DNA from: Candidatus Micrarchaeota archaeon
GTDB lineage: Archaea > Micrarchaeota > Micrarchaeia > Norongarragalinales > SBBD01
Reading direction: 5' to 3'
DNA: 28,394 nucleotides
NCBI GenBank assembly: GCA_043813365.1
Contig: JBDRLB010000047.1
Coordinates: 1-28,394 of the forward strand
Of this stretch, positions 5,154 through 16,187 are shown in pieces (the first letter of the stretch is position 1; each line of letters starts with the position of its first letter). The notes beneath the pieces were generated by a model. It was given only the letters and a program-made list of their open reading frames with translations. It was not told where the DNA came from and ran no database searches. The position numbers were made by a program, and so were the translations under genes.

Positions 5154-6506
5154 ATGGGAAAAATGAAACGCAAGGAAGAAAAAAGGGGAATGGGCCTGAA
5201 TGGGAAGCTGCTTTTAATAGCAGTAATTGTGCTGGCTTCATTCATTTTCCTGGAGATAGCAATATCCACGCTGAACAATTTCCTGAAGGCGCCGCTGTTG
5301 CTGCTGACGCTGTTTGCTTCGGGAAAACTGATGGCAAAAATCGGGGGGCTCGAGAATTATTACGGCATCATCATCCTCAGGGGCGAGAAGGGGTTCTCTA
5401 CGATGCACAAGCTCGCAAGGCACCCGAAGCTGATGCGCGCACTGGCTGATTTCGGGATGAGCATCGGGTTCGGCCTGGTGTACTCGTTCTTCGTGTTCAG
5501 GAAACATCCGAAGAAATTCTTCGGCCATGCGTTGATCGTATGCACATTCTTCGGCACATTGCTTTACTCAAATTCAACTGCCCAATCCGGATGGGGAATG
5601 GCAGCAATCGGAATGCTGGGCGGGCTGCTCTTTTTCGGGATCGCATCACTGGTGATACAGGCGCTGAATATCATAACCGTGCCGGAAAGCACGGCTGGCG
5701 CAGCGCTCATTGTTCCGGGAGTCACAATACCTTTCTGGGAAGGGCTCATTGCAATTATCATTGCAGTTACGGTTCATGAGATCGCGCATGGCGTGCTCGC
5801 GATGATTGAAAAATTGGAAGTAAAGAACTCGGGCGTCATCCTGTTCGGGGTGCTTCCGGTGGGAGCTTTCGTGGAGCCCAATGAAAAGAAATTATCCGGT
5901 TTGGAGATGCACAAGAAGCGCAGGATCCTTATTGCGGGAACAACCGCTAATTTCCTCACTTTCCTGCTTTTTTCCGTGTTGATTATACCGCTGGTGCCCC
6001 TGGGAATGGGGATGGCAGATGGCGTTCAAGTGGCCGCGCTTTCCAAGGATTCGGCTTCACTGGGGATCCTTGCGGAGAAAGACATCATTACGGCAGTGAA
6101 CGGCCAATCCGCCACGAATTACCCCCAATTCGCCGAGCTGATGAAGGGGAAGAAGGAGGGCGATGTTGTCAAGCTTACAACTGACAAGGGCGAAAAGTCC
6201 ATCATATTGGGCGCAAACGGGAAGATGGGAATCGTGCCGGAGAACCATTTCCCGGAAAATATTTTTGCAATTGGCGCGTTTCTTTTCATTTTAGGGACGA
6301 TGTCGTGGGTGATCATCATCAACCTTGCGCTTGCTGTGATCAACCTTGTGCCGATTTTCCTCACGGACGGCTATCGGCTGGTATATGAGGAGGCGAGGGG
6401 CGTATTCCCGAGCAAGGGGGATACGAATGCGAAACGGATTGCAATTGCAGCGGGCGCGATCTGCGTGCTGCTGCTGCTTATTAATTTCCTCCCAAATTTC
6501 TGGTAA
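5154..6506 (+). CDS. M50 family site-2 metalloprotease with PDZ domain
   Basis: HEIAH zinc motif, GAFVEP, AG...N, NLVPIFLTDG; PDZ-like insert GILAEKDIITAVNG. Confidence 0.92.
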   Translation: MGKMKRKEEKRGMGLNGKLLLIAVIVLASFIFLEIAISTLNNFLKAPLLLLTLFASGKLMAKIGGLENYYGIIILRGEKGFSTMHKLARHPKLMRALADFGMSIGFGLVYSFFVFRKHPKKFFGHALIVCTFFGTLLYSNSTAQSGWGMAAIGMLGGLLFFGIASLVIQALNIITVPESTAGAALIVPGVTIPFWEGLIAIIIAVTVHEIAHGVLAMIEKLEVKNSGVILFGVLPVGAFVEPNEKKLSGLEMHKKRRILIAGTTANFLTFLLFSVLIIPLVPLGMGMADGVQVAALSKDSASLGILAEKDIITAVNGQSATNYPQFAELMKGKKEGDVVKLTTDKGEKSIILGANGKMGIVPENHFPENIFAIGAFLFILGTMSWVIIINLALAVINLVPIFLTDGYRLVYEEARGVFPSKGDTNAKRIAIAAGAICVLLLLINFLPNFW

Positions 6507-11231: not shown

Positions 11232-11873
11232 ATGGAGGACCGATCAATATTCATGGCAATGTTAGAAAGGCTCCAAAAGCGGCCGATTTGGCCGGAGATA
11301 GTTACAATTGTCAGCCAGAGTGGAAAACCCAGTCCCGCCATACAACAGGAATTGCGGGGGATCGGTTATAAAGTAAAAGCAAGTAGAGTCGTTTCTTTGC
11401 GTCAAAGATTGAGGAAAGCAGGCCATAAGGTGTATTCGGGAGGGGCGCCGGAAGGCGATATAGCAAAAAGGATCAAAAAGGATTTCGGCGAGCGGATAGC
11501 CCAGGAATTCGAAAAACATCCGGGGATCCACCCGGTCGAGCGCGCGAGCGCCCTAATTCCCCATCTGAGCGAAGTGCGGCTTTCCCAATTGACTGGTTTT
11601 GCCCGGAACACTGTCAGGAGCAGGCTGGCGATGCCTAGGAAATATATACCATCGGCCGGATCGGCTTTCGGCGAGTCAGCAAGGGCTGCAATTTCCCTTG
11701 CGCTTAAAAAAGGCACTCCAGACAAAACATTGCTTGCGAGGCTTAAAGAAACGACGGGAAGAGATTGGAACATCGATATGCTAGTTAGGGAAACACGAAA
11801 AAAAAGCAGCGCCTATTACAACCCAGATTTCAGCATCGAAAATCTTAGGGCCGTCCAAGAACGGAAGCAATAA
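11232..11873 (+). CDS. Orphan basic protein, possibly with HTH-like segments
   Basis: 213-aa ORF filling the rps15-trmJ gap. LSEVRLSQLTGFARNTVRSRL resembles a helix-turn-helix. Confidence 0.65.
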   Translation: MEDRSIFMAMLERLQKRPIWPEIVTIVSQSGKPSPAIQQELRGIGYKVKASRVVSLRQRLRKAGHKVYSGGAPEGDIAKRIKKDFGERIAQEFEKHPGIHPVERASALIPHLSEVRLSQLTGFARNTVRSRLAMPRKYIPSAGSAFGESARAAISLALKKGTPDKTLLARLKETTGRDWNIDMLVRETRKKSSAYYNPDFSIENLRAVQERKQ

Positions 11874-11905
11874 CGCCTGAAGAAAGCACCAACGCGTTAA
11901 TCTGA

Positions 11906-11962
11906 TTAACGTTTAATCCGCTTGCTTATGCCCCCTATCGCCACAAACAACGCCTTTATTTC
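11906..11962 (-). pseudogene. Synonymously recoded duplicate of the trmJ 3' end (18 codons plus stop)
   Basis: Translates to EIKALFVAIGGISKRIKR*, identical to the product of 12025-12081, with 17 differences in 57 nt. Confidence 0.93.
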
Positions 11963-12023
11963 CCTCGCCTTGCCCCTTTCTCCCGAGAAAGGTGCGATGG
12001 CTCCGCGCCAAAGAGGGAATTTG
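11960..12023. repeat. Double-hairpin dispersed element, homologous to part of the tRNA-Val intron
   Basis: Shares six ordered exact blocks (GCCTTG, CCTTTCT, AGAAAGG, CGATGGC, GCCAAAGA, AATTTG) with 15992-16045. Closed by the stem TTCCCTC/GAGGGAA. Confidence 0.85.
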
Positions 12024-12024
12024 A

Positions 12025-12715
12025 TCAGCGCTTGATTCTCTTGCTAATCCCTCCGATCGCAACAAAAAGGGCTTTGATCTCCTCATCCGATATCCTGGAT
12101 CGCTTCAGGATGTTCTCGAAGGCCCAGCCGACCTTCCTTTTGTCGCGGATTTCGAGCATCCCATCCAAAATTCCGGAAAAAATGCGCTGCATCACCTTGA
12201 CGTCCTTCCTCTTTGCGGGCCGGTAATGGATGAAGGTGCGGGAGGAAGTATAGAGCTCGTAAAGAAGTATTCCAACGGAATGGGAGAGGTTCAGGACGGC
12301 AAATTTGGGCGTTGAGGGGATTGTGACCAGAATGTCGCATTTTTTCAGGTCGGCAAGGGAGAGGCCGGTTCCCTCGTTCCCGAAAACAAGGGATACTTTG
12401 TCCTTTTTTGAAATTTTCGGGCAGAGATCCTTGGGGGAGATGCAGCTTTTGAGCGCATAGCCGAACCTTGCTGAGACACCGGTCGTTCCGACAATGATGT
12501 CCGTCCCTTCAGTTGCTTCCTCCAACGTGGAAACGATTTTCGCCTTTTTCAGTATGGTAACGCCGGATTTTGCAAACATCACAGCCTCCTGCGATTTGGG
12601 CGAGATTTGCGGCCTTACGAGCACGAGCTGCTTTGAGCCGAAATTGGCCATGATGCGGCACACCGAACCCAAATTTACAGGATATAATGGCTCAACGAGC
12701 ACGACCCCTCATCAT
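12025..12715 (-). CDS. trmJ: SPOUT RNA methyltransferase, TrmJ/TrmH family (start region appears frameshifted)
   Basis: LVEP..P.NLGSVCRIMANFG, VFGNEGTGLS, LNLSHSV.ILLYEL. The open frame begins at GTG 12702; ATG 12715 is out of frame by one base. Confidence 0.88.
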
Positions 12716-15757: not shown

Positions 15758-15864
15758 TGGACTCGGCGGGATTTTCGAGAGCATGCGAGCGAACCCGCAA
15801 AGCCCAATCGAACCCGCTGTCTCCTGCATGCCATGCAGGCGTGTTACCAGTCCACTACGAGCCC
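15758..15864 (-). tRNA. tRNA-Ala(GGC) with a 35-nt intron at position 59/60 (15772-15806)
   Basis: Acceptor stem GGGCTCG/CGAGTCC with G3:U70 and A73. Anticodon arm CCTGC-ATGGCAT-GCAGG. T stem GCGGG/CCCGC. BHB with helix TTCG/CGAA and bulges ATT and AAT. CCA not encoded. Confidence 0.93.
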
Positions 15865-15932: not shown

Positions 15933-16096
15933 GGGCCCAGAGTCGGTCGGTAAGACGTTCGCTTGACGTGCGAAAGACGTGGGGTTCAATTGCCTTGCCT
16001 TTCTTTTCAAAGAAAGGCGATGGCGCCGCCAAAGAAAGAAATTTGTCGGCTCCGCCGAATTCATCGGCAAGGCATGGACAATTCCCTATGGGCCCA
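15933..16096 (+). tRNA. tRNA-Val(GAC) with a 92-nt T-loop intron (about 15990-16081, likely position 58/59)
   Basis: Acceptor stem GGGCCCA/TGGGCCC plus A73. Anticodon arm TTCGC-TTGACGT-GCGAA. T stem TGGGG/CCCTA. Removing 92 nt restores the loop TTCAATT. Relaxed BHB with helix GTTC/GGAC, followed by the stem TGCCTTGCC/GGCAAGGCA. Confidence 0.9.
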
Positions 16097-16187
16097 TCTC
16101 TGCGACGGGGGAAGTATCCCCCTCGACCAGATTGGTCGTTCCCCCTCTAGATGAATTTTTCGCTCCCCCCTCATTTATTGCGAAAAT

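Follow-up and report, generated by a model that had tools for sequence, protein, structure and literature searches.

A 57-nt module found in the window, by which we mean the whole stretch of 28,394 nucleotides analysed here, belongs to an apparently undescribed family of multi-copy, folded insertion elements of tiny Micrarchaeota archaea. We call the module element E. The window copy, at positions 11967-12023 of the plus strand, is of the short form, and its genome is referred to as G000. Copies of E form a family with a common fold, duplicated sequence flanks a part of them, and sites that are filled in one genome are empty in others. In our judgement E is probably a small, strand-specific, folded and non-autonomous DNA insertion element that supplies BHB tRNA introns and is inserted at gene ends too. 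The most unusual feature, absent from the earlier note on this DNA, is a duplicated gene end that is synonymously recoded.

The earlier note had compared the module with a part of the tRNA-Val intron of the window and proposed that they are homologous. Its reading of both stretches (11967-12023 and 15992-16045) agrees with the letters, and the similarity exceeds that of shuffled controls. The local alignment scores 39, and 2000 dinucleotide-preserving shuffles have a mean of 14.1, a standard deviation of 2.5 and a maximum of 30, i.e. 0 of 2000 reach 39. The module had been called intergenic, but it does not lie in neutral spacer DNA: the right end of E touches the stop codon of a SpoU gene (12025-12027) and the module is flanked by a 65-nt direct repeat, Table 1. 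A three-way junction closed by TTCCCTC/GAGGGAA had also been described. This closing helix is present in the window copy but absent from the flanks of the other copies, and the junction is not supported as a family feature. No tRNA was obtained from 10329 + 6075 deletion variants around the window copy, which is thus not classified as an archaeal BHB tRNA intron. Among 4227 Rfam families none has a match at gathering score anywhere in the window, and an identity of E as a known ribozyme, C/D-box or k-turn RNA was rejected with zero Rfam matches in the window. A k-turn reading made by eye is incompatible with the covarying P2 stem.

Table 1. Positions in the window of the element E copy, its helices and the neighbouring features.
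Feature	Position	Strand	Evidence or remark
Element E, short form	11967..12023	+	Covariance-model match 11954-12030, 60.8 bits, E-value 1.5e-12; shuffle test; pair counts
P0 of the window copy	GCC 11967-11969 with GGC 11999-12001
Hairpin P1 of the window copy	11975-11981 with 11986-11992
Hairpin P2 of the window copy	11991-11996 with 12004-12009		Loop of 7 nt, ATGGCTC
Tail of the window copy			AAAGAGGGAATTTG
SpoU-family RNA methyltransferase gene, host of the insertion	12025..12702	-	ORF list; Pfam SpoU_methylase E-value 2.8e-24
Gene-contiguous copy of the last 18 codons, stop TGA	12025..12081	-	ORF, Pfam, tblastn self-match
Detached second copy of the same 18 codons, stop TAA	11906..11962	-	tblastn match 11962-11909, 18/18 amino acids
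Direct repeat, 65 nt	Left arm 11899..11963, right arm 12018-12082	.	Ungapped local alignment of the flanks
ORF of 213 amino acids, no family match	11232..11873	+	Between the S15 and SpoU genes in G000 only; outside the direct repeat
tRNA-Val(GAC) gene, interrupted in the T-loop by an intron of 92 nt, 15992-16083	15933..16096	+	ARAGORN after deletion, 43 variants; covariance-model match 15979-16053, 68.9 bits

To estimate the size of the family, we searched the 1.34-Mb genome with nhmmer, seeded with both copies from the window, which gave 28 matches at an E-value of at most 0.0012. Three rounds of searching raised the number to 37 distinct copies, grouped in 28 clusters. The G000 assembly is a metagenome bin of 78 contigs, 88.6% complete. 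A covariance model (R1) was built from 29 copies and matches 32 times in G000 and 15, 18, 26, 32 and 15 times in its five congeneric relatives. Outside the genus but within the family, four genomes have 0, 3, 6 and 2 matches, and in other families of the order the matches are sporadic; overall, 15 of 40 genomes of the order contain at least one at an E-value up to 0.001. The covariance-model search that the earlier note had suggested has thus found further copies, of which 113 from about 12 genomes were aligned. A long form of about 130 nt is also found, with two additional hairpins within hairpin 1. The core of E hardly varies even between genomes with just 57% identity in their SpoU proteins, which fits a selected function, or homogenisation between copies, better than a decaying parasite. 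Full-text literature searches returned no published description of such an element in Micrarchaeota, in agreement with the earlier suggestion that it is undescribed.

The fold was evaluated by counting pairs in three helices over the 113 aligned copies, using an alignment that had been fitted to P0 and P1 and not to P2. In P0 the initial GCC contacts a GGC within the loop of hairpin 2; 99.1% of its cells are paired, and compensatory changes are seen in each of its three pairs (AU, AU/GU and UA/UG). For P1 93.5% of the cells are paired, and six out of seven pairs have changed on both sides. P2 is paired in 84.6%, and its length varies by matched insertions between subtypes. For all helices together the paired fraction is 92.2%, compared with 82.2 +/- 0.5 in shuffles (0 of 500 reach the observed value), and the covariation score is 0.340, compared with 0.172 for shuffles and at most 0.188 for slid partners. 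The covariation supports a fold of two hairpins joined by a 3-bp loop contact, and the claim that the structure is kept despite the sequence differences is supported by these compensatory changes. Its many G-U pairs restrict the fold to a single strand, namely that reading GCCTTGCC. The 7-nt loop AUGGCNC, presenting GGC to the upstream GCC, looks like an anticodon loop that reads a codon; the tRNA-Ala(GGC) gene of the window has the loop AUGGCAU.

Since its tRNA genes are interrupted, the intact window yields no tRNA with ARAGORN or with Rfam at gathering score. Only once the intron has been deleted does ARAGORN detect the tRNA-Val(GAC) gene (43 deletion variants). What had been taken as the whole intron, 15992-16045, is only the E portion of the full 92 nt. 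Within the intron E is followed by a small hairpin and by GGCAAGGC, the pairing partner of the initial GCCTTGCC. A CAATT repeat leaves the exact boundary ambiguous. In the fold of the precursor the T-stem is followed by a 5-bp helix, GUUCA/UGGAC, between bulges and then by the helix GCCUUGC/GCAAGGC. No BHB motif of this kind is seen in folds of the region around the SpoU copy. The orthologues of the tRNA-Val gene differ. In G000 and G004 a forward E is the intron. In G003 (locus L109) the tRNA-Val(GAC) gene has an unrelated 49-nt intron, then a 3' exon, a reversed long E and a second, identical 3' exon, the two 18-nt exons lying about 190 nt apart. The G003 locus may represent a stage between an insertion beside an intact gene and an obligate intron.

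Two further observations concern the tRNA genes of the window. Divergent from tRNA-Val lies an interrupted tRNA-Ala(GGC) gene (15758-15864, minus strand) with a T-loop intron of 35 nt at 15771-15805, which does not contain E. It is missed by ARAGORN, and the Rfam tRNA model gives merely 27.5 bits, on the 5' part. Directly 3' of tRNA-Val, at 16097-16130, there is a GC-rich hairpin, CGACGGGGG-loop-CCCCCTCG. The same hairpin is found behind two tRNA-Leu genes (G000:C11 at about 5156-5190 and G000:C72 at about 29850-29888), and the motif GCTCCC(C)TC comes after it; together they may be a common tRNA trailer signal.

For 10 of the 28 clusters of G000, a tRNA is restored by deleting an interval that holds E, and for two more when a second canonical intron is allowed. 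Both in this deletion scan and in the search for flanking repeats the false-positive control consists of the remaining clusters only. Three more clusters have T-arm-like flanks in which no tRNA was resolved. The introns that carry E are found in tRNA-Val, Leu, Asn, Arg (three times), Ala, Cys, Ser and others, at T-loop and anticodon-loop positions, and in all the introns seen the GCCTTGCC end of E faces the exon. The introns of tRNA-Leu, tRNA-Asn and tRNA-Ser hold two units, usually of different subtypes, arranged as a head-in inverted pair. In two cases, on C2 and C42, the tRNA gene in front of the copy is complete, and a second tRNA 3' end with its trailer stands on the far side of E. The remaining G000 copies outside tRNA genes are located at gene borders. 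The EndA ORF of G000 has 392 amino acids and two tRNA-intron-endonuclease domains, which, judged from its sequence, is consistent with the placement in Micrarchaeota (DPANN). The endonuclease of ARMAN-2 is described in PMC3239211 as a three-unit enzyme that cuts relaxed motifs at 59/60.

At the SpoU locus the minus strand reads the end of the SpoU gene with its TGA (12081-12025), the reversed E, and then the 18 codons once again with TAA (11962-11906). The two gene ends are identical in all 18 amino acids and differ in 14 of the 18 codons, in every case synonymously, with 2/1/14 differences at codon positions 1/2/3. Their codon adaptation is alike, 0.70 and 0.66. The detached copy adjoins the outer, GCCTTGCC, end of E. 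In the SpoU loci of nine relatives there are zero element matches at an E-value of at most 0.01, i.e. the site is filled in one out of ten genomes, G000 only. An allele with an empty site was not found in the contigs of four DNA runs, which cover the region patchily. The S15 gene is within the fetched SpoU locus in six of the nine relatives and directly follows the SpoU gene in four. The 213-aa ORF that, together with E, separates the two in G000 has zero Pfam or NCBIfam matches and zero paralogues in the genome, and is therefore not a repeated element gene. Just past the detached copy we also note an inverted repeat, CGTTAATC..GATTAACG, at 11892-11915. Beyond the detached stop codon the sequence has a loose likeness to the inner end of E, as if it came from an older, eroded copy.

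We surveyed 118 clusters for flanking repeats, taken from G000 and from fetched loci of G001-G035. A direct repeat of variable length, 15-65 nt, adjoins E in 25 of them. The other 93 are without a clear flanking repeat, having scores of 14-26 or a match at a distance. Thirteen of the 25 repeats are tRNA 3' ends, often plus trailer, and are nearly identical. Duplications of coding sequence are found at 11 loci in seven genomes: SpoU, FEN1, ProRS (G000, G003 and G004), RtcB (G000 and G004) and four unnamed genes (in G002, G004, G007 and G009). The hosts that Pfam identifies are SpoU, ProRS, FEN1/XPG, RtcB, S27a and PyrI. Relative to the host genes E occurs in both orientations. Read on the strand with GCCTTGCC, all the coding loci have one form, the duplicated stretch, E, and the duplicated stretch again. 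The duplicate in contact with the GCCTTGCC end is well preserved, be it joined to the gene or not. An unjoined duplicate on the other side is either decayed, as in FEN1 (two amino acid changes in 15 codons), or missing, as in the class where exactly 2 nt separate GCC from the stop codon of a long ORF in front of it, to which 8 of the 141 copies from all genomes belong. No single target motif is present at all junctions; a T-loop-like YRAAT fits many of them and does not fit the SpoU site. There were 27 candidate rows for genes split by E, which were judged to be open-frame noise.

Polymorphic sites, filled in some relatives and empty in others, had been expected if the family is mobile, and they occur at three genes: SpoU, ProRS and RtcB. 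At the ProRS site E lies upstream, with a duplicated ribosome-binding site, ATG and ten codons. The site is filled in three out of six genomes of the genus (G000, G003, G004), empty in G001, G002 and G005, and filled in none of four outgroups. Its insertion point, ...GAATTCAAC/GCCTTGCC (the slash marking the junction), resembles in sequence the T-loop junction. In the detached ProRS copy of G000 11 nt have been lost. The RtcB site is filled in G000 and G004, two out of six, and empty in G001, G002, G003 and G005, and also in G011. The nested pattern of these sites fits a presumed vertical descent of successive gains. At both rtcB loci, which encode the tRNA-splicing ligase (G000:C7:31021-31758 and G004:C46; L140, L162), a long E stands behind the stop codon, accompanied by a detached copy of the last ten or so codons. 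The FEN1/XPG locus (G000:C74:3790-3945, L142) has the duplicated tail TKQQNLQKWF, which resembles a PCNA-binding, PIP-box-like motif. Its second copy is followed by the first bases of another element, as if the site had been struck twice.

According to the model that we prefer, the main home of E would be the tRNA genes, above all T-loop position 59/60. There it would serve as the body of BHB introns, in some as a single unit with a short GGCAAGGC partner and in others as two inverted units, and these copies would presumably be removed by a broad-specificity three-unit splicing endonuclease of G000. E would also insert at the ends of housekeeping protein genes (SpoU, ProRS, RtcB, FEN1 and others), and each insertion would bring a direct duplication of 15-65 bp of the target. 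The gene would survive because one complete copy of its end stays joined to it. The window copy would then be an insertion made 18 codons before the SpoU stop. The long and variable duplications suggest insertion at the DNA level, by templated insertion that returns to an upstream point or by widely staggered cuts. Of the two origins offered in the earlier note, a REP/MITE-like family that colonises tRNA genes and is tolerated through (predicted) splicing agrees with the multiple copies, the filled and empty sites and the compensatory changes.

The other origin, in which an excised intron RNA returns to a non-tRNA site through reverse splicing followed by reverse transcription, appears very unlikely to us. 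E is indeed common to introns and non-tRNA sites, and archaeal BHB introns are known to circularise (PMC12558985). Against this, RVT_1 has zero matches in the 88.6% complete G000, the duplications extend beyond the mature tRNA end and hold trailer and 5' leader DNA that is outside the spliced product, and E is found in both orientations relative to the host gene. We give equally little credence to a REP/REPIN-like or IS200/IS605-derived (PATE) hairpin moved as single-stranded DNA by a Y1 (HUH) transposase. A strand-specific fold with many G-U pairs would suit it, as would a left end adjoining a short T-loop-like motif and the stop codons placed exactly 2 nt before GCC, and G000 does have one Y1 gene (G000:C8:179-523, IS200-like). 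However, the hairpins that flank this gene (G000:C8:1-600) are unlike E. Y1_Tnp is found in G000 and G003 only and not in G001, G002, G004 and G005, which carry 15-32 copies of E each, so the linked HUH/RAYT or TnpA nuclease that had been suggested is present in just two out of six element-rich genomes. A TnpB-type domain is not seen above cut-off in any of these six genomes; Y1_Tnp, RVT_1 and the TnpB-type domain are what our search for a mobiliser covered. To our knowledge the IS200/IS605-type Y1 transposases also insert without target duplication.

An immobile cis-acting RNA signal, for instance a 3'-end stabiliser, a terminator or a processing site, which arose once per site and was kept by function, would explain the near-invariant core over deep divergence, the well-supported fold and the frequent location directly behind stop codons. 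We nevertheless regard it as improbable. E is found in either orientation relative to the host gene and within tRNA introns, orthologous sites are filled or empty with target duplication, and near-identity over 55 nt at unrelated loci needs copying and not convergence. A signal function and mobility can both hold together. Finally, the differences between the SpoU copies look like allelic synonymous variation and G000 is a binned metagenome, as one would expect if two strain variants of the SpoU 3' end had been joined through a repeat by the assembler. Such an artefact is hardly credible, since 11716-12070 is covered without a difference by a 355-nt Logan contig, which another assembler produced from the reads of a public run, perhaps the source sample. 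Moreover, the architecture recurs at the 11 coding loci, and a chimaera requires a read-supported junction between E and mid-gene.

The persistence of both coding copies needs a separate explanation. Over the 11 coding loci the copies differ 13/6/69 times at codon positions 1/2/3. This deviates from equal thirds (P = 6e-18) and from the expectation for a free-drifting detached copy (P = 5e-10, and 7e-8 when the three ProRS rows, which are not independent, are left out), so a freely drifting detached copy is rejected. The amino acid differences between copies are two in FEN1, two and two in RtcB, three at L139 and one at L075. The SpoU copies are identical as protein and synonymously near saturation, although the tails of G000 and G004 differ at at least seven positions; hence either the synonymous change in the functional copy was driven, or both copies are used. 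In the former case the regenerated target would gain immunity, or it would have to be unlike the detached copy. We know of no prokaryotic insertion element for which coding-preserving divergence of duplicated gene ends is a described consequence.

Use of both copies would follow if E and the gene-contiguous copy formed a facultative mRNA intron, cut from some transcripts, so that both ends are translated and selected as protein. The mostly synonymous differences favour this, and the detached copy is always at the GCCTTGCC end, which is the end that faces the exon in tRNA introns. Detached N-terminal copies retain a ribosome-binding sequence and ATG, and C-terminal ones a stop codon. An EndA of the broad-specificity type is encoded, and the self-complementary GAATTC in the ProRS target could form a central BHB helix from both copies. 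However, no convincing BHB is seen around the protein-gene copies, and the minimum-energy folds of six C-terminal loci are without a common helix between the presumed splice sites. A strict BHB scan (3-nt bulges, 4-bp helix) also misses the known tRNA introns and is uninformative. The two amino acid changes in each detached RtcB copy and the 11 nt lost from the detached ProRS copy of G000 also speak against it, and we consider a facultative intron rather unlikely.

With the insertion element as the preferred reading, we put forward, with considerable doubt, that E is a site-seeking parasite of essential genes that regenerates its target beside itself, the contiguous copy being quickly recoded at synonymous positions for immunity, or else that the detached copies are real alternative exons. 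If E were such a parasite, the detached copy at the GCCTTGCC end would represent the former target, or might even determine the specificity of the machinery. By hand count the detached ProRS copies differ from the consensus of the three empty sites by 2, 2 and 1 nt and the functional copies by 8, 1 and 5 nt, i.e. the detached copy is nearer to the consensus in two out of three genomes. At RtcB both copies are equally distant from the empty-site relative, and the detached ones carry amino acid changes. A frozen detached copy as a general rule is contradicted at RtcB and was rejected. If the parasite reading is true, E is a natural counterpart of an engineered "home-and-rescue" drive cassette; if the detached copies are alternative exons, Micrarchaeota splice protein-coding mRNAs at many loci.

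A 2026 preprint on Asgard archaea concludes that the arrival of archaeal tRNA introns is still an open question. The E family offers intermediates of this process: an obligate T-loop intron, a module behind an intact tRNA whose 3' end is duplicated, and a module at the ends of protein genes, where orthologous sites are filled or empty. They give direct access to the arrival step. Among the hosts are the housekeeping genes for the tRNA ligase RtcB, ProRS, FEN1 and an RNA methylase.

The closest likeness among tRNA introns is to the transposed introns of Thermoproteales, where a similar intron sequence is found in tRNA genes of different identity and position. PMC4090602, a review that summarises this work (Fujishima et al. 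2010, Mol Biol Evol 27:2233), regards their gain as a DNA-level event of unknown mechanism. In comparison, E is a defined folded module with subfamilies, it is not confined to tRNA genes, its sites can be filled or empty and have long target duplications, and its host is a DPANN archaeon with a three-unit endonuclease and not a crenarchaeon. With REP, BIME and REPIN sequences, other small hairpin repeats and MITEs, E has in common that it is a short, multi-copy, non-coding and non-autonomous hairpin, often directly behind stop codons and polymorphic in its insertions. It differs from all of these in sitting within tRNA introns that are predicted to be spliced. REP/REPIN-RAYT and IS200/IS605 PATE systems have a Y1 partner, whereas no co-occurring Y1 gene flanked by E is found. 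The presence/absence polymorphism of a multi-copy family is MITE-like. However, a solo E has no terminal inverted repeats (inverted repeats are present only in the paired intron forms), its duplications are long and variable (15-65 bp) and not a fixed short target-site duplication, and no related autonomous element was found among the Y1_Tnp, RVT_1 and TnpB-type domains examined.

Introner elements of algae and fungi are transposons that create spliceosomal introns, with one splice site obtained from the target duplication. E resembles them as a mobile DNA insertion presumably made harmless by splicing, and part of the splice signal may come from the duplicated target. The splicing system is different, a protein endonuclease and a BHB, and for the protein-gene copies of E splicing is hypothetical. 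The duplicate of a tRNA 3' end behind an intact tRNA gene is also reminiscent of the att repeats of integrases and casposons. Here, however, only about 60-190 nt lie between the repeats, there is no integrase or Cas1 gene, and the same element duplicates the starts and ends of protein genes.
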